A stretch of DNA of 64,000 bases from a virus (taxonomy: Duplodnaviria > Caudoviricetes). The stretch lies in IMG/VR virus record IMGVR_UViG_3300032074_000002, positions 7,526 through 71,525 of that record. One strand, written 5' to 3'. Both the position numbers and the translations under genes were made by a program. Shown here piece after piece: positions 7,440 through 45,568 of this stretch; position 1 is the first letter of the stretch; every line of letters starts with the position of its first letter. The notes under the pieces were generated by a model. That model ran no database searches and was not told the origin of the DNA. It was given only the letters and a program-made list of their open reading frames with translations.

Positions 7440-7808
7440 ATGGAAAACCCCGACCCCTTCATCTTCGGTAGTCCCGAAGAGGTGAAGGAGGCTCTCGTGC
7501 GACGTGTCGAGGAGCAGCGTCTGATCGCCGAAGAACATACCCGCAGCATGGATGAGTTCGTCGAGGGCCTGCCCGAAGAGCACCTGAAGCTCTTGCAGGT
7601 CATCATCCGGCAATGCGCACAGAACCCGGACTTTGGCCAGTACCTCAACGGCTGGGTCAGCCACATGCTCAAGGCGAAGTTCAGCATCTGCCAGTTCTGC
7701 GGCGGCAAGCACGAGACGCCTGAGGACTGGATCAAGGCGCACGCCGACAACCTCCCCGGGGTTTCTGGCCCCGCTCCTTGGATGAAGGGTCACCCCGATG
7801 AGTACTGA
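7440..7808 (+). CDS. Hypothetical protein (CQFC..H)
   Basis: GAGGAG RBS; coupled to next gene. Confidence 0.75.
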   Translation: MENPDPFIFGSPEEVKEALVRRVEEQRLIAEEHTRSMDEFVEGLPEEHLKLLQVIIRQCAQNPDFGQYLNGWVSHMLKAKFSICQFCGGKHETPEDWIKAHADNLPGVSGPAPWMKGHPDEY

Positions 7809-38712: not shown

Positions 38713-39039
38713 TTAGCCTTCGGATTGGGTGGTTGGCAACGATGCCCGCGTGCCGTTTTCGCGCGCCAGCACCTTCGGTTCTTCTATCGGCGTCAGAGCG
38801 GCATTGGTTCTGTTTACGATGACGACTTCCTGCCAGCGCAAGCACTCTCGACACAGGAGCGCCACGGTCCCACCGTAGAAGATTGTCTCACCAAAGATGC
38901 GGTTCTGCTTATAGACTCTTTGGTGAATGTACAGCCGACCCTTCTCGTCTACGCCGTAGACAGCCAAGAGTGGCTTGCGAGCACAGAAGCATCTCAGTTC
39001 GTGCTTCGTCTTCTCGCGGCGCGGTCGTTGACTAGGCAA
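38713..39039 (-). CDS. Small Zn-finger protein (Mu Com-like pattern); start uncertain
   Basis: ELRCFCARKPLLAV...VALLCRECLR. Confidence 0.6.
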   Translation of the reverse strand: MPSQRPRREKTKHELRCFCARKPLLAVYGVDEKGRLYIHQRVYKQNRIFGETIFYGGTVALLCRECLRWQEVVIVNRTNAALTPIEEPKVLARENGTRASLPTTQSEG

Positions 39040-40693
39040 CAGTCTCAGCAACCTTGGCGAAGGTGTCACAGAACTGCTTGGACGACTCCCACTTGACCTC
39101 CGCCACGTCGCTCAGGAAGGCGGTCATCTTGGAGTAGTAGGCATCAGCCTTCAGCTGGCCAACCTCGTTTACCATGGCTCGCCGGTAACCGAGGTCAATC
39201 TTGGACGGATCAAACTCACCACGCTTGAATGCAGCCGTCACCTGCTGACCGACGCGGTTGACGATAGCCGTAGCCGTAGAGGACGTGCCGTCACCCGCGC
39301 CGTCGGGCTGCTGGTTGTCCAGCGGGTTCGCGCCCGCCGGGTCCTGGCCAGCGTTCGGGTCCGTGCCCGGATCGGTGCCGGGAGTCTCCTTGAGCTGACG
39401 GATCTCGGTCAGCGTGAGCCCAGCGATGTCGCCGAGCTGATCGAGGTCAACCTTAGCCTTGCCGCTACTGATCAAGGCCTGAACGATCGTATTGATCAGA
39501 TCGCTGGACTCGTTACCCATCTTACGGAACTTAATGCGAGCCCTGGGAGCCTTGGGTGAGAAGTTGTAGTCCACCATCCGACTGAGCACGAAGTTGTCGA
39601 TGTACTGCTTTCGGTCGCCGTTCAGGCTGTTGAGCATCCACAGGTAGACCTGCATGTGCCCCTGGCCGAGGTTGTAGCTACCAACATCGGCAGTACGGAG
39701 CAGCAGGATTGGCGTGAACAGACCGATCGACATTTCTTCATCGAGTCGCGTCATGTAACGCTCGAAGTCAGCACCACGCATCTGCGACTCGAGATATTCG
39801 ATCTCGTAGTCATATGCCTTGCCAGATCCGCGCATCCCCTCGTCCTGGGGGTTGCGGTCGTTGGGCAGAACAACCGTGCTGCGGCTACGGATGTTCATAA
39901 GCATCTGCAGCATGTAGTCGCGCGAGTTCTGTGTCGTGCCGTCAGCCAGCAGGATGTCCTCGTCCATGGGAGCGCGACCGATTGGAGTCGGCTCGCCAAA
40001 GCGCTCGTAGTACCTGTTAGCGAACAGGTGCAACAGCATGGAGAAGAACCAGGATGTAAAGGCAGGCTTGAGCAGCTTAGTTCCGTAGTAGTCGCCGTGC
40101 GTCATCAGCATCGGGTACCACAGAGTCGCCTCGGCGGGCACTGGCCACGGTGAGCCGAACTGCTTGAGGCCGTCGTACACCTTGATCTTCGGAGGAACCT
40201 TACCTCCGGGCGGTGCGTAACCGTCAACGTACTTCCAGTTGACGAAGCACTCTTCCGGGATCAGGTCCTTGACCTTCGTAAGCTGAACACTCTTGCCCTG
40301 AATGTCATTGTCCCACTGGAGAACGTTCGGCGCAAAGCCTGCCCAGTGAGCTGTGTTCATGGATCGAGCCAGCGGCGTCCACATCTCGGCGAGGTTCTCC
40401 TCGCAGTGAGCGGCGATTTTCTTGTCGTCGCACTCGATGTGCCATTCGGCCTGGTGGAGCAGGAAGCCCAGCACCGCGAGCGAGGCGTGGATCTGGTAGT
40501 GGCTCGTCATCTTTCGGTAGTCCGAAAGCGTGAGGTTGTTCAGGTCAAAGCCGATGGTCCCACCGCCGGGCAGCTGCAGGAAGGTCAGGTCACGGCCCGC
40601 CCAGTTGCCGAACGCCTCGCCCAGCTTTGGCGGCGCGGCCTTGCGGTACTGCTGTGAACTGATCGGCCGACCGTACTGGTCGAGAAGGGACAC
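39032..40693 (-). CDS. Portal protein (DUF935 / Mu gp29-like)
   Basis: GTG 40693 with GAGG RBS; YGTKLLKPAFTSWFF...YERFGEP..IGR; follows TerL. Confidence 0.9.
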   Translation of the reverse strand: MSLLDQYGRPISSQQYRKAAPPKLGEAFGNWAGRDLTFLQLPGGGTIGFDLNNLTLSDYRKMTSHYQIHASLAVLGFLLHQAEWHIECDDKKIAAHCEENLAEMWTPLARSMNTAHWAGFAPNVLQWDNDIQGKSVQLTKVKDLIPEECFVNWKYVDGYAPPGGKVPPKIKVYDGLKQFGSPWPVPAEATLWYPMLMTHGDYYGTKLLKPAFTSWFFSMLLHLFANRYYERFGEPTPIGRAPMDEDILLADGTTQNSRDYMLQMLMNIRSRSTVVLPNDRNPQDEGMRGSGKAYDYEIEYLESQMRGADFERYMTRLDEEMSIGLFTPILLLRTADVGSYNLGQGHMQVYLWMLNSLNGDRKQYIDNFVLSRMVDYNFSPKAPRARIKFRKMGNESSDLINTIVQALISSGKAKVDLDQLGDIAGLTLTEIRQLKETPGTDPGTDPNAGQDPAGANPLDNQQPDGAGDGTSSTATAIVNRVGQQVTAAFKRGEFDPSKIDLGYRRAMVNEVGQLKADAYYSKMTAFLSDVAEVKWESSKQFCDTFAKVAETVA

Positions 40694-40695
40694 TT

Positions 40696-42594
40696 CTACC
40701 TCGTTTCGCGGGGCTGCAATCTCCCTGGGAGACTCAATCCACCGAGCATGGAACCTGAGGGGGGAAAGCTTGGAAGAGCCGTACCGCCGTAGGGACCTGC
40801 GTGGAAAGGCAAACCTGGGATTTCGAAGCCTGTCGGTTCCTGCACCTTTGGGCGAGGCATGTCCCACTCGGGGTCCTGCGACGACCGGGGTGAGCGTAGC
40901 CCACGGCGGAAGGATCGGTCGCCCATGAGTGTCGTCACAACCCCGGCCATGGCGTCGGCCAGATCCTTGGACCCCTTGGTTGGGTGGTCGATCTTCTTGC
41001 CGGTATCCTCTAGCTGTGTCAGCTCTCGGATTGCGACCTGTTCTTCGTCTGCGTCCCCGATGTTTCGGTAAGTGGTGTAGGGCGGGAACTCGAGTCTCTC
41101 GTCGATGATCGCATCACGAAGGTCCTCGTATGGAAGCGTCGATCGGTCAACGCTGAGATTATCAGCGAAGAAGCGCTTCTTGCGAAGTTGCTGAATCGAG
41201 TCTGTGCTCTGGAATCCGTCATAAGTCACCCTGATAACCTTAAACTTGCGCTCATCCCGAAGGTCGTAGATTACCCTTCGGATGTCTGAGAGCTGGATCT
41301 CATATCCGGGCCGCGCCTTAACTCGATAGAGCATGTCGATGACGATGTAAGGCTTGTCCTCGCCGTCGATCTCAACGATGCCTTCGACATGACCCATCGC
41401 AAAGCCGAGCGCATCCCCATCAGGACTGGTAGCGAGGTCAATGTGGACACATCGCTTGCGGGGGTCATTGTCGGCACGGAACCAGCTTGCAATCTGGGGG
41501 CGGGTGACGGACTTGTCTATAGGCGAGTCTGACCCGTGTCGTTCGATCCACCGAGCACGGCAGCTCTCAATCTTTTCCACTGATCCGATGAAGGGGTCGC
41601 CAATCGCAGGTGGAATGCCAGCGAGATCACGTAGGGCCTTGATGGGGTCATTGATGAAACTCTGGCGATAAACAGATGGCACTTCAAAAACGTGCTCGAC
41701 ACTATTCGCAATGAGATCTCGACCCACTTCGTCTGGGACGATTTCCCTCCGCCGCGAGTCATAGAAAAACGAATCACGAGTACCATCCGATTTCAAGTAG
41801 CGCGGGTAAGACCAACCGCGCGACTCCCAGATGGTCATGCGAGTCGTGTGCGCCTTCGGGTCTTTACTGAATGAGTCGAAGGTCCGGGCAGCGAAGCCCT
41901 CGGCCTTCTTCATCTGGCCAATGACGACGATCAGTCCCCGGTCATCGTACCTGGATTCGATACGAGCGTTAATCGTGTCGTAGCCGATCTGAGCGTAGTC
42001 CTTATCTTTGGTTACCTTGTGCGAGTCTGCCTCGTCGATAATTCCGCCGAGGATGTTGTAACCTTCGAAGGTCGTCTCGGCACTGTCGCCAGGGAGGATC
42101 CAGATTTCCTTGGGAAACCGGATGGACTTGGTAAACTTCGGATCGTATGGGTAGTTGTTAACGAACCAGTCCGAGTGTTCGATCCTGGCCTTGACATCAT
42201 CGAAGATGACCTGACGAGCCTGATCTTCCGACGTGCTCATCATCATAAAGGCGATACGCGAGCCAGGCAGCAGTCCCCAGAACTTCTGAGGATCTTTGAG
42301 ACACAGAACCCAATGACACATGTACGGCAGGATAATGCTGGCAATCGTAGTCTTGCCAATACCGATTGCGCCTGTAATCATTGCGCGCAGGACAAGCGCG
42401 ATGTTAGTGCTATTAACATCGTCGCCGAAGATTTCCAGCAGTGCATCCTTGATTCCGGGCCGCACCATGTCTGCGATATCGAGATAGCCCTCGCCGATGA
42501 ACTCCATGATCGTTGCTGGACGCTCTTCGAACTCAGGATTCTGAATCAGCCAGCGCGCCTCGCGGTCTGCCTTGGCAAAGTCAAAGCTGGTCAT
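40696..42594 (-). CDS. terL: Terminase large subunit
   Basis: GAIGIGKT (Walker A), GGIIDEAD (Walker B), HIDLA, DGFQS, IDHPTKGSKDLADA nuclease motifs. Confidence 0.95.
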   Translation of the reverse strand: MTSFDFAKADREARWLIQNPEFEERPATIMEFIGEGYLDIADMVRPGIKDALLEIFGDDVNSTNIALVLRAMITGAIGIGKTTIASIILPYMCHWVLCLKDPQKFWGLLPGSRIAFMMMSTSEDQARQVIFDDVKARIEHSDWFVNNYPYDPKFTKSIRFPKEIWILPGDSAETTFEGYNILGGIIDEADSHKVTKDKDYAQIGYDTINARIESRYDDRGLIVVIGQMKKAEGFAARTFDSFSKDPKAHTTRMTIWESRGWSYPRYLKSDGTRDSFFYDSRRREIVPDEVGRDLIANSVEHVFEVPSVYRQSFINDPIKALRDLAGIPPAIGDPFIGSVEKIESCRARWIERHGSDSPIDKSVTRPQIASWFRADNDPRKRCVHIDLATSPDGDALGFAMGHVEGIVEIDGEDKPYIVIDMLYRVKARPGYEIQLSDIRRVIYDLRDERKFKVIRVTYDGFQSTDSIQQLRKKRFFADNLSVDRSTLPYEDLRDAIIDERLEFPPYTTYRNIGDADEEQVAIRELTQLEDTGKKIDHPTKGSKDLADAMAGVVTTLMGDRSFRRGLRSPRSSQDPEWDMPRPKVQEPTGFEIPGLPFHAGPYGGTALPSFPPSGSMLGGLSLPGRLQPRETR

Positions 42595-42770
42595 TGAGGA
42601 TCACGCGGCCTTGGGATCGTTGGAATACTGCGCACGCCGGCGCGGCATTCTTGGGAGCAGTAAAGCTTCTTGGTCTTTGTACTGTACCACTTGAAGTGGC
42701 TAGAGTGCTGCAAGATTCGGCAGGCGGGGCAGGCGCGGGATGTAGTTACTGCACTGCCTACCGACTGCAT
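42591..42770 (-). CDS. 59-aa TRASH-like Zn-finger protein (not in track)
   Basis: CPAC...YCSQEC; AAGGAG RBS; ATGA overlap with terL. Confidence 0.65.
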   Translation of the reverse strand: MQSVGSAVTTSRACPACRILQHSSHFKWYSTKTKKLYCSQECRAGVRSIPTIPRPRDPQ

Positions 42771-42772
42771 GA

Positions 42773-43120
42773 CTACTCCTTGACGGTGCCCGAGGTTGGA
42801 CTACCTGCCTTCTCCCAGCCGATTCGAGCATAGTCACGCACGACAGGACTAAAGTGCTGCGCCAATGTCCACGGGACTGTTCCCTTGTTGAGAATCAGTT
42901 GCCGCATGAACTCGTGAATCTCATAATGCCCGTTACAACAGACACTGATCTTATTGTCGTCCGTATCGGGGCCGCCCATGCCTCTCGGCCAGATGTGATG
43001 CTTCTCGATGGGCACCCAGGAGTGGTGAGTGTGGACAGCGCAGGTGTAGCCCATGGGCATTCTCGGGCTAACAGCGTGGCTGTGGCCAGCGTCCTGCAGG
43101 GTGGGCTCACTCATGCTCAT
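42773..43120 (-). CDS. HNH endonuclease (packaging-associated)
   Basis: HHIWPRGMGGPDTDDNKISVCCNGHYEIH. Confidence 0.88.
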   Translation of the reverse strand: MSMSEPTLQDAGHSHAVSPRMPMGYTCAVHTHHSWVPIEKHHIWPRGMGGPDTDDNKISVCCNGHYEIHEFMRQLILNKGTVPWTLAQHFSPVVRDYARIGWEKAGSPTSGTVKE

Positions 43121-44517
43121 GCGACCGTCCCTTCAATTGCAGCAGGCTGCGCGACAGACTCCATCGGGCCGTACATGCGCTCCATCATAGTTCTGACCAT
43201 AGTAGGCGTGATGTCCTTGCGCTCAATGCCGGTAGACTCAATCGCCTTGATGACCTCAGACATGATCGCCTGAGGAGTTGCCCGCTCAGAGCCGACCGAT
43301 ACGGAGTTGCCAGCAACGTTGACGTTTACCTTCGGGCCAGCTCTGAGTGCGGGGTCGATGAGCTTCGCGTAGGTGACGCCATTCTTGAATAGTGCGCTGA
43401 GCATATTGGTCGTGTCGGGACTCATCTCCCCGAACTCGTCCTCGTCCTCGATCGCACGCTCTGCCCGTTCGGCCTGCTTGGCGAGAATCGAACTCAAGCC
43501 GTCGATCACTACACCAGAGTCTCGTGTCTGGAACATGCTTGCGAGAGATCTGTTGTCGCGTCCCACCGTACACACCGATCCTTCGCGGTACTGCTTACAC
43601 GTATCCGTCAATGAGCAGCTGTCACAGCGTATCTTATCAGTGGGCAACACCGGAAGCATCGTAGTGAACGGACTCTTCGTTGTAGCGGGCGAAAAGTCTG
43701 CATCCGAGCTGTCGGTGTCGATCTCCGACGGGTCGATGTTTGGATTGCGACGAAATCTGCGGTTCATACCCTCGGTAAAGTTATCCGCAGCCCACAGTGC
43801 AGACTTGATCATATAGATGCAGCGATTCCGCGGAACCGACAGGTCCGAAGGCTTAAACCCGAGGAGGCTGATCCACTGCGGCAGTAGCATCGCCGCTTCA
43901 TACTTGATCTCCTTGCCGGGTGGCAAGACGATCTTACCCTTCTGGGCATAGCTTCTGGGCTCGTAGTCAACCGACTTGAACCCCATGCCGAACAGTGCAC
44001 TCCAGCCGTAGAGGCCGTGAATGTGGATCGTACAATCAGGGTAGTCAAGCTGAACATCGCGCACAGTCTTAATCATCGCCCGACCGCGGCCCGTAACCAA
44101 GTCAGGAAAGTCAGTCACAACAACGATGTGATCCTGGCCAAACACCGGGCGCTCACGCCCGGGGACACTGGAGTCCTTGCAGGCGTCCTCATTCTCGCCA
44201 GAGGGATTGGCGGCAAGTTCTTCAAGGACGCTAATGGCTCGCTCGTTGAGCATCGACACGACGGGGTAAACGGCAGTGGGAGTATCCTCGGTGCAGCCCG
44301 ACTGATACTCAGCACAGCCCTGCTCCTCGTTGCCCACGTCCCATACCTTGTATGGGTGGCCAGCGAAGTACAGCTCTGCGTGCTTGAGTGGATCGAGCCG
44401 CTTCTTGAAAAGGTATCCACGATCCCACACAACCTGTCGATGGCCAGCCTCAACTAGCTCCTTGACATAGTTGTCGGGATTTCTAAAGAACACTTCAGTA
44501 CGCTGCCGCTTTGACAC
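43117..44517 (-). CDS. Putative TGT/DpdA-like domain fused to a Cys4 and TerS-like C-terminal region
   Basis: GTG 44517 with GGAGG; WDRGY and IHIHGLYG...FKSVD motifs; CDSC-x5-C-x8-C; VNVNV tail; sits at the TerS position. Confidence 0.55.
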   Translation of the reverse strand: MSKRQRTEVFFRNPDNYVKELVEAGHRQVVWDRGYLFKKRLDPLKHAELYFAGHPYKVWDVGNEEQGCAEYQSGCTEDTPTAVYPVVSMLNERAISVLEELAANPSGENEDACKDSSVPGRERPVFGQDHIVVVTDFPDLVTGRGRAMIKTVRDVQLDYPDCTIHIHGLYGWSALFGMGFKSVDYEPRSYAQKGKIVLPPGKEIKYEAAMLLPQWISLLGFKPSDLSVPRNRCIYMIKSALWAADNFTEGMNRRFRRNPNIDPSEIDTDSSDADFSPATTKSPFTTMLPVLPTDKIRCDSCSLTDTCKQYREGSVCTVGRDNRSLASMFQTRDSGVVIDGLSSILAKQAERAERAIEDEDEFGEMSPDTTNMLSALFKNGVTYAKLIDPALRAGPKVNVNVAGNSVSVGSERATPQAIMSEVIKAIESTGIERKDITPTMVRTMMERMYGPMESVAQPAAIEGTVA

Positions 44518-44746: not shown

Positions 44747-45568
44747 GTGTCAACTTCTGTACTGGTCAATCTTATGGCCAAGCACTTCATCGCACGACCT
44801 GACGTGAAGGCAGTTCAGCACGCTGACGGCTCTTATGCCCCGACCCGTGGCGCGGGGTGGAAGCGAGCAGACATCGAAGCACACCTCGCGGGGGAGGCAA
44901 CGTATGGACACTATCTGCTCAACACAGACGACACCACCAAGCTCATCTGCTTCGACGTGGATCTACGCCACACACGGAAAGAAAATGGTGCTGATGTGCC
45001 TGACGGCTGGCTGCCCAGTGCTGGCCTGGACGGAATCGAACCTTATGACGGGTTTACCAGTGCCAACCCTCGCGCCGTGTGGGCGGATCGTAGAGATGTT
45101 CGTCGCAACTACCTAAAGTACTCGATGCGGCTGATCGCGCATGTGTTCGCGGAGCGCATCCAAGCAGAACTGGACGTGCCTGTAGCCTGTACCTATTCGG
45201 GCAGCAAGGGTATCCATGTGTATGGGCTCACTGGTAAGATCAGCGCCAGCGATGCTCGTGACGGTGCCATGATTGTCATTGACTCGATTGGTCAGTTCGA
45301 GATCGAGCGCGGCGATTCACTCTTCAAGTACTCGGGCAACGATACGGAAAATCCGTTCGTCAACTTCTCGATCGAGGTCTACCCCAAACAGTCCAGCTTG
45401 GCTGGCAAGGACTTGGGAAACCTGCTTCGGCTCCCCCTGGGCAGGAACAACAAGAGCAAGGACCCGACGTTCTTCATAGACATGACCGCACCATTGGCCG
45501 AGATGAGGCCGATGGACCCGGAGTGGGCTCTCACTACTGCTTCTCCGTGGAAGCAGCCGGGCGAGTGA
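44747..45568 (+). CDS. Archaeo-eukaryotic primase (AEP, TOTE-type) domain
   Basis: CFDVD, YSGSKGIHVY, EVYPKQ...GNLLRLPLG. Confidence 0.85.
   Translation: MSTSVLVNLMAKHFIARPDVKAVQHADGSYAPTRGAGWKRADIEAHLAGEATYGHYLLNTDDTTKLICFDVDLRHTRKENGADVPDGWLPSAGLDGIEPYDGFTSANPRAVWADRRDVRRNYLKYSMRLIAHVFAERIQAELDVPVACTYSGSKGIHVYGLTGKISASDARDGAMIVIDSIGQFEIERGDSLFKYSGNDTENPFVNFSIEVYPKQSSLAGKDLGNLLRLPLGRNNKSKDPTFFIDMTAPLAEMRPMDPEWALTTASPWKQPGE

Follow-up and report, generated by a model that had tools for sequence, protein, structure and literature searches.

No part of the phage packaging motor is as poorly conserved or as poorly understood as small terminases (TerS), and how they recognise the genome is an open matter for most phages. 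Their oligomerisation core, as in SPP1-like G1P and Sf6 gp1, consists of antiparallel helices followed by beta-strands; small terminases assemble into rings of 8 to 12 copies. Here we analysed a gene for a protein of 466 amino acids (aa) that occupies the TerS slot in a 64,000-nt stretch of virus DNA (Duplodnaviria; Caudoviricetes; positions 7,526 to 71,525 of IMG/VR record IMGVR_UViG_3300032074_000002; hereafter the window). With slightly more confidence than doubt, we propose that it encodes a small terminase that handles DNA by means of a largely non-catalytic barrel derived from the DNA base-exchange enzyme DpdA.

For DpdA and the tRNA-guanine transglycosylases (TGTs), three Asp residues and a C-x-C-x2-C-x22-H zinc site have been reported as invariant or shared (PMC10164549). 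Strand beta8 ends with the nucleophile (Asp256 of S. Montevideo (Sm) DpdA, Asp264 of E. coli (Ec) TGT), the general acid/base lies in a D-S-G motif after beta3 (Asp95 and Asp89, respectively) and the base-recognition residue after beta4 (Asp130 and Asp143); the zinc site pins the insertion Ins8 to helix alpha8, and the TIM barrel of DpdA binds and bends duplex DNA (PMC10164549). In phage Rosebush, ~28% of G is replaced by dPreQ0. Another 76 phages carry DpdA without the preQ0 pathway and possibly use host precursors, and one of them, the DpdA-only Mycobacterium phage Orion, has unmodified DNA (PMC6884629).

Fold searches on a predicted model and a profile-profile comparison show that residues 1-255 of the 466-aa protein belong to the TGT/DpdA superfamily as a non-canonical member. 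The AlphaFold2 model, built on 31 relatives (alignment A1), reaches a predicted local distance difference test score (pLDDT) above 90 over aa 8-253 and comes out as a TGT-type (beta/alpha)8 TIM barrel with its putative active site at the C-terminal face. When it was searched against the PDB with Foldseek, the top 50 matches were all TGTs (E 8e-5 to 8e-4, prob 1.0), and the BFVD matches include actinophage proteins annotated as queuine tRNA-ribosyltransferase. Two independent aligners rank the TGT superfamily first, with 40-50 more aligned residues than for other barrels. On the sequence side, a deep profile of the barrel family (Neff 5.7) was compared by hhalign with a profile of the Rosebush-type DpdA family, resulting in a score of 36.3 (P 2.7e-4; aa 154-245 versus 170-273), as opposed to 17.8 for the reversed profile and 24.2 for the best of 40 block shuffles. 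This alignment places D184 on D199, the S-V-D aspartate of the Rosebush DpdA family. Against E. coli TGT, the best local alignment pairs P187-G201 with P268-G282, just after the nucleophile D264; on the E. coli side this is the P-x-R-x-A-x2-G-plus-hairpin segment. In the predicted model, the last barrel strand ends at D184; a short helix and then a beta-hairpin come next, an arrangement that mirrors the start of Ins8 in DpdA (PMC10164549).

The initial annotation had assigned the N-terminus to TGT/DpdA by eye, and both fold searches and the profile comparison bear this out. Its equation of WDRGY (residues 31-35) with the DSG motif is uncertain, as hhalign weakly prefers VG(NE)EQG at this place. 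We consider the signature D184-x2-P-R-x2-A-x2-G plus beta-hairpin, which that annotation did not name and whose P-R-x2-A-x2-G segment matches Ec TGT 268-275, to be the stronger indication of TGT kinship at the sequence level.

Several searches were negative or uninformative. With the shallow alignment A1, hhalign gave no significant result for A2 or for single sequences, so that the deep profile alone succeeded, and the N-terminal half of the barrel did not align significantly either (P 0.2). The ESM Atlas gave scores of at most 0.82, its own model having a pLDDT of 0.38. Scans of the protein with Pfam, NCBIfam and PADLOC, including PF01702, TIGR00449, NF041059 DpdA and PADLOC DpdA, yielded no match at E <= 10, PDB sequence searches with two family profiles gave nothing below E 0.03 (no TGT and no TerS), and tblastn of E. 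coli TGT against phage records returned bacterial-type tgt genes only and no DpdA. A search of the whole genome with PF01702 was negative as well; the same search misses the genuine DpdA proteins of phages 9g and Rosebush. Since Rosebush gp2 likewise escapes Pfam PF01702, the DpdA/TGT models of NCBIfam and the DpdA model of PADLOC, the negative results with such hidden Markov models (HMMs) carry little weight.

Rosebush gp2, the DpdA of a phage whose DNA carries dPreQ0, shares with the 466-aa protein the barrel fold and the order of motifs (F-H-G-x-G ... S-V-D, hairpin, G-x2-P-S ... P-x-N-R ... S-A-L). Both proteins are devoid of the CxCx2C zinc motif, both escape the above TGT/DpdA models, and both are encoded in the packaging region, upstream of the large terminase (TerL) gene. 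In Rosebush (locus L005, 1-6041), dpdA, queC, queD, queE and folE are found between the ParB-like gene 1 and terL, i.e. inside the packaging module; by analogy, such a cluster would be a plausible evolutionary setting for the fusion of DpdA to a packaging protein. Unlike the 466-aa protein, Rosebush DpdA keeps the DSG and LDVIGD aspartates and is encoded next to que genes and folE, whereas in our case neither motif occurs in a form that is both recognisable and invariant, and que genes are missing. Conversely, the 466-aa protein has a C-terminal Cys4/helical module of 170 aa that Rosebush gp2 lacks. Bacterial DpdA (S. Montevideo, 7UI4), Z. mobilis TGT and P. horikoshii ArcTGT are only 9-12% identical to it. 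In comparison with bacterial DpdA/TGT, it has no N-terminal lid, no zinc site pinning Ins8 to alpha8 and no DpdB partner, and the three Asp residues are not all identifiable. The non-catalytic subunit of eukaryotic TGT, QTRT2 (6FV5), keeps the zinc site, works alongside a catalytic TGT subunit and has tRNA as its substrate; in contrast, the genome analysed here encodes no catalytic partner, and the gene context is DNA packaging.

Conservation was measured in 258 full-length relatives. All positions that are 100% conserved (D294, C298, C301, C307, C316, R351, E359, P389 and G430) are C-terminal. In the barrel, structural Pro, Gly, Trp and Leu residues are kept best, and the presumed catalytic positions reach 78% (D32), 85% (H167) and 92% (D184). 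Substitutions of D32 are well aligned (WSRG, WERG, WNRG and others) and occur even at 42-50% identity. At the position of D184, Woes gp6 has Cys, Mbo2 Ala and Orchid Gly. The barrel homology of Woes gp6 has a Prob of 99.9 despite this Cys, and the C-terminal modules of Mbo2 and Orchid match that of the 466-aa protein at Prob 99.8-99.9. Because relatives that have lost D184 retain the gene, its position and the C-terminal module, the function common to the family would not depend on transglycosylase chemistry.

As to the other two aspartates, the general acid could correspond to D32 in W-D-R-G or to E65 in V-G-(NE)-E-Q-G (E/D in 64%); hhalign weakly favours the latter in an alignment of the N-terminal half that is itself not significant. 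There is no invariant Asp between D32 and D184 in the 258 relatives, the best-conserved acids in this interval being E70 (76%), E99 (80%) and D115 (67%), and a base-recognition Asp is not identifiable. The C-x-C-x2-C-x22-H motif is absent from the sequence. Instead, a C-x2-C-x5-C-x8-C knuckle is present ~45 residues past the last barrel helix, after a linker of variable length. By eye, its pattern 'CD.C...C[KR][NQ]Y.R' recalls 'CDCYTCRNYSR' of Ec TGT, which we mention as a lead only.

On the other side of the ledger, the 466-aa protein retains all nine pocket residues that we tracked (D32, Q66, E70, H130, H165, H167, G168, D184 and R188), as do 123/258 relatives, and all 31 sequences of A1 have D32, H167 and D184. 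For this reason the pocket in this subclade probably still works, at a minimum in binding a ligand or a flipped base, and the term 'dead' in one of the alternatives of the initial annotation is not supported for this protein. Losses of D32, H167 and R188 are correlated over the 258 relatives (phi 0.42-0.64, uncorrected for kinship), which hints at these residues forming one site.

The C-terminal part, folded alone, was modelled with a pLDDT of 84 (76-86 for the Cys4 knuckle). The model consists of the knuckle, a long antiparallel helical hairpin, a beta-hairpin, two short helices and the AIEG end. The predicted order of helical hairpin, beta-strands and C-terminal tail resembles the core of classical small terminases (SPP1-like G1P, Sf6 gp1, P22 gp3, lambda Nu1), whose genes likewise directly precede that of TerL. 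The 466-aa protein is 2-3 times larger than these, has a TIM barrel in place of the small helix-turn-helix (HTH) domain and carries the Cys4 knuckle in addition. From the model, the hairpin (aa 320-390) is the putative oligomerisation core and aa 391-466 the putative TerL-docking tail. Searched with Foldseek, the C-terminal model had no match at E <= 0.001 and did not retrieve a TerS, and two VIA-align runs retrieved generic helical hairpins only; this is an absence of match rather than evidence against a TerS fold. Likewise, comparing the C-terminal profile by hhalign with Orion gp1 (annotated as TerS) and Rosebush gp1 (ParB-like) gave nothing. The term 'TerS-like' that had been given to this module finds no counterpart among solved TerS structures; its support comes from gene position and PHROG labels.

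These labels come from two families: phrog_6902 matches the whole protein (aa 4-454, E 1.2e-68) and phrog_16015 aa 293-445 (E 1.9e-23), both being annotated, not experimentally defined, as 'terminase small subunit'. An exhaustive search extended the family to 379 representative clusters at 50% identity, nearly all of them full length (~460 aa). Conservation on this scale argues that the motifs noticed in the sequence did not arise by chance. By tblastn, homologues with 28-31% identity were found in 108 cultured Gordonia, Tsukamurella and Rhodococcus phages, where most records name the gene product hypothetical protein and some TerS. The proteins of the two PHROGs, together with Woes gp6 and Orchid gp9 (Gordonia), ReqiDocB7 gp001/002 and Mbo2 gp1 (Rhodococcus) and those of TIN3/TIN4 (Tsukamurella), represent the same or a sister family with shared architecture and synteny. 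However, cultured relatives are just 28-35% identical and have lost the D184 equivalent (C, A or G), whereas the uncultured subclade studied here keeps the full pocket. In ReqiDocB7 (locus L010, 152-1548), gp001 and gp002, both 'terminase small subunit', are one gene of this family that a frameshift interrupts within the linker; the gp002 frame encodes the Cys4 motif ahead of the annotated gp002 Met, and either a sequencing error or a real split would account for it. A full-text literature search retrieved no description of a TGT/DpdA-type barrel joined to a small-terminase module; the architecture of barrel, Cys4 knuckle and helical part in the TerS slot thus appears to be without a published description.

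Gene order links the gene to packaging. The stop of the 466-aa gene overlaps the start of an HNH endonuclease gene by ATGA, followed on the same strand by a Cys-rich open reading frame (ORF) of 59 aa and the genes for TerL, portal, protease and capsid. Only the HNH gene and the 59-aa ORF separate the 466-aa gene from terL, with stop and start codons that overlap or abut. An AEP primase gene forms the upstream boundary of the operon, and a primase-helicase gene is also located upstream and divergent. We compared 34 related loci with 28-47% identity (32 metagenomic ones, Woes and ReqiDocB7). In 34/34, the homologue is directly followed on the same strand by TerL, which often abuts or overlaps it, and then by the portal gene; wherever the contig extends far enough, the opposite strand upstream encodes the AEP primase (27 loci) and the primase-helicase (17 loci). 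The records of Woes, Orchid and Mbo2 have the same layout. The initial annotation had placed the gene just upstream of HNH and terL, which gene order, the ATGA overlap and the phrog_2 match of TerL corroborate. It had also seen no other TerS, and we too found no second candidate in the genome, although the scan for TerS families was not exhaustive.

We infer the TerS role from this synteny and from the database labels. In such a small terminase, a TIM barrel of ~250 residues descended from DpdA/TGT would have replaced the usual small HTH DNA-binding domain. The ancestors of the barrel would have bound duplex DNA and flipped out guanine, and the barrel itself would recognise or handle the DNA where packaging starts. 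The C-terminal module, comprising the Cys4 zinc knuckle, helical hairpin, beta-hairpin and AIEG end, would form the oligomer and dock on TerL. Catalysis would be dispensable family-wide, the presumed catalytic positions being eroded while gene, position and C-terminal module persist. Several points weigh against this proposal. At 466 aa the protein has two to three times the size of a typical small terminase, and it is acidic (isoelectric point (pI) 5.4); a domain-by-domain charge analysis gave no hint of a DNA-binding face. No HTH family was found in 105 members, the N-terminal 255 residues being a TIM barrel, and a Pfam match, TerS families included, was obtained for 0/105. The TerS label in PHROG and RefSeq is itself positional, and most SEA-PHAGES records read hypothetical protein. 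Furthermore, the complete set of nine pocket residues in this subclade is what an active enzyme would show too, and the mapping of the general acid/base Asp to D32 or E65 is ambiguous.

The same observations leave some room for a gene product that is not a TerS at all, which we regard as rather unlikely. The gene would then be the first of the late operon with another DNA-related role (end protection, cos-cleavage accessory, late-operon regulator or anti-defence), and the true TerS would be unrecognised or absent. The missing similarity to solved TerS structures and TerS Pfam families, the atypical size, the lack of an HTH and the positional origin of the database label are all in line with this view. 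It is at odds with the invariable position directly before TerL over 28-47% identity, often abutting or overlapping, and with the fact that, except for an occasional HNH gene, no other candidate exists between the divergent primase genes and TerL. The predicted two long antiparallel helices followed by beta-strands also have the order generally known from TerS oligomerisation cores. Still less credence is due to the idea of a generic TIM barrel that would owe its TGT/DpdA likeness to convergence or to an artefact in the predicted model. The first rank of the TGT superfamily with two independent aligners, the profile alignment with a genuine DpdA family that outscores all 40 shuffles and the order HG...[ST]-V-D, short helix, beta-hairpin, G-x2-P-S-x-[LV]...P-x-N-R...S-A-L in common with Rosebush-type DpdA make it the least probable of the explanations considered here, and the HMMs that miss the 466-aa protein also miss the experimentally backed Rosebush DpdA.

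Between these two in probability, and on the whole unlikely, is an active DNA transglycosylase coupled to packaging, which in this subclade would still exchange or remove a base of the phage DNA via a covalent Asp184 intermediate, with a host-made base (preQ0, preQ1 or another purine analogue), and which the fusion to a terminase-binding module would deliver to the DNA during packaging. The alignment of D184 with the Asp that acts as nucleophile in the Rosebush DpdA family fits such an enzyme, as do the pocket residues kept here and in nearly half of the relatives, with three of them invariant in A1. Correlated losses of D32, H167 and R188 are likewise expected of one site, yet shared ancestry could also explain them. 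Rosebush provides a precedent for a dpdA-que cluster directly before TerL, and the 76 phages with DpdA and without preQ0 genes might draw on host precursors (PMC6884629). Against this stand the three Asp residues that are invariant in TGT/DpdA (PMC10164549), of which the one for base recognition has no identifiable counterpart here, the ambiguous general-acid position, the absent zinc site and the DpdA-only phage Orion with its unmodified DNA (PMC6884629). A supply of preQ0 is not encoded by the phage as far as our searches reach: QueC, FolE and QueD families were found neither in the whole 71.5-kb record (93% complete) nor in Woes, and QueC was also missing from seven near-complete relatives and ReqiDocB7, i.e. 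from all 10 genomes including this one. Rosebush served as positive control in every run (QueC E 3e-57, FolE E 6e-49, QueD E 5e-17), and tblastn with its QueC/D/E, FolE and DpdA proteins gave nothing in this genome, in agreement with the earlier remark that folE and queCDE are missing from the window. Finally, the gene persists at its place and with its C-terminal module in relatives that have C, A or G instead of the nucleophile, so the conserved function seems able to do without the chemistry. More doubtful still is the specific scenario in which the barrel is active in this subclade, Asp184 attacking C1' of a flipped guanine, so that the terminase would mark, nick by way of an abasic site, or base-exchange the DNA at the packaging start or processively from there.

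The initial annotation had offered two alternatives, modification coupled to packaging or reuse of the fold. The small terminase with a reused, DpdA-derived fold appears to be the better fit, because preQ0 genes and a canonical zinc site are missing and the catalytic positions drift while the C-terminal module is invariant; coupled modification is disfavoured by the same drift and by the absence of queC in 9 relatives.

If the proposal is correct, it would be a clear example of a molecular machine that has taken over an enzyme fold as its module for handling DNA. The family with a barrel derived from a DNA base-exchange enzyme in the TerS slot, with its 379 clusters and more than 100 cultured Gordonia, Rhodococcus and Tsukamurella phages, would then explain why this gene is labelled 'hypothetical protein' in many actinophage records, and it might account for orphan DpdA-like genes that leave the DNA unmodified. 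Subclades with an intact pocket (this phage) and an eroded one (Woes, Orchid and Mbo2) constitute a natural series for asking when and whether catalysis was lost. Were the barrel active, DNA modification or a covalent protein-DNA intermediate would be physically coupled to packaging with a base derived from the host.

The coordinates of the gene, of its parts and of its neighbours are compiled in Table 1. The gene is a real ORF at the position given before (stop codon 43119-43117); it starts with GTG at 44517, preceded by a Shine-Dalgarno sequence GGGAGG at 44530-44525. A longer ATG-initiated ORF of 557 aa was rejected, as homologues start at the equivalent of residue 5-8 and the position of the Shine-Dalgarno sequence fits the GTG. 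All motifs listed in the initial annotation are present, some with corrected spacing. IHIHGLYG (164-171) and FKSVD (180-184) are separated by 8 residues instead of 7, the third motif reads LGF-x3-DL-x3-R (219-230) with three residues instead of two before DL, and CDSC-x5-C-x8-C was given correctly (C298-x2-C301-x5-C307-x8-C316). VNVNV exists (397-401) and is no tail, since 65 residues lie beyond it.

Table 1. Positions in the window of the 466-aa gene, of the segments of its product and of neighbouring genes.
Feature	Position	Strand	Basis or remark
Whole gene, 466 aa + stop	43117..44517	-	PHROG 6902 member, GTG start with GGGAGG Shine-Dalgarno sequence
TGT/DpdA-superfamily (beta/alpha) barrel, aa 1-255	43753..44517	-	fold and profile comparison
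Acidic linker, aa 256-293, variable length, poorly conserved	43639..43752	-	pLDDT <50, pI 4.2
Cys4 knuckle D294-x3-C-x2-C-x5-C-K-x-Y-R-x4-C, aa 294-319	43561..43638	-	Cys kept in 258/258
Short helix and long antiparallel helical hairpin (334-360, 367-387), aa 320-390	43348..43560	-	R351 and E359 invariant
Beta-hairpin (VNVNV, 397-410), helices 415-427 and 438-449, AIEG-x-V end, aa 391-466	43120..43347	-	P389 and G430 invariant
HNH endonuclease gene	42773..43120	-	PF01844 E 0.005 (below curated cut-off); phrog_655 E 1.2e-5
59-aa Cys-rich ORF	42591..42770	-	4-nt overlap with terL start
Large terminase TerL	40696..42594	-	phrog_2 E 1e-18; relatives carry PF27249
Portal protein, Mu gp29-like	39032..40867	-	PF06074 E 8.5e-26; phrog_113 E 2.4e-68
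AEP-type primase, divergent	44747..45568	+	PF22548 E 8e-17; phrog_5362 E 1.9e-79

Among the neighbours, the HNH gene has the appearance of a mobile insertion and not of a fixed component of the packaging module, because just 1/34 related loci (L012) has an HNH gene between the TerS-slot gene and terL. The 59-aa ORF between HNH and terL has a zinc-ribbon-like pattern (C-x2-C ... C-x3-C), found no PHROG match and no significant Pfam match, and may be a genuine small gene of the packaging operon. TerL had no match in our local copy of Pfam; the precomputed PF27249 of its relatives is a newer family. In two of the related loci, the TerL match extends over ~2.7 kb (L023, 7364-10096; L039, 8062-10794) compared with the usual ~1.75 kb, suggesting that terL carries an intein or has a gene inserted in it. 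The portal protein of Woes is annotated as containing an intein.

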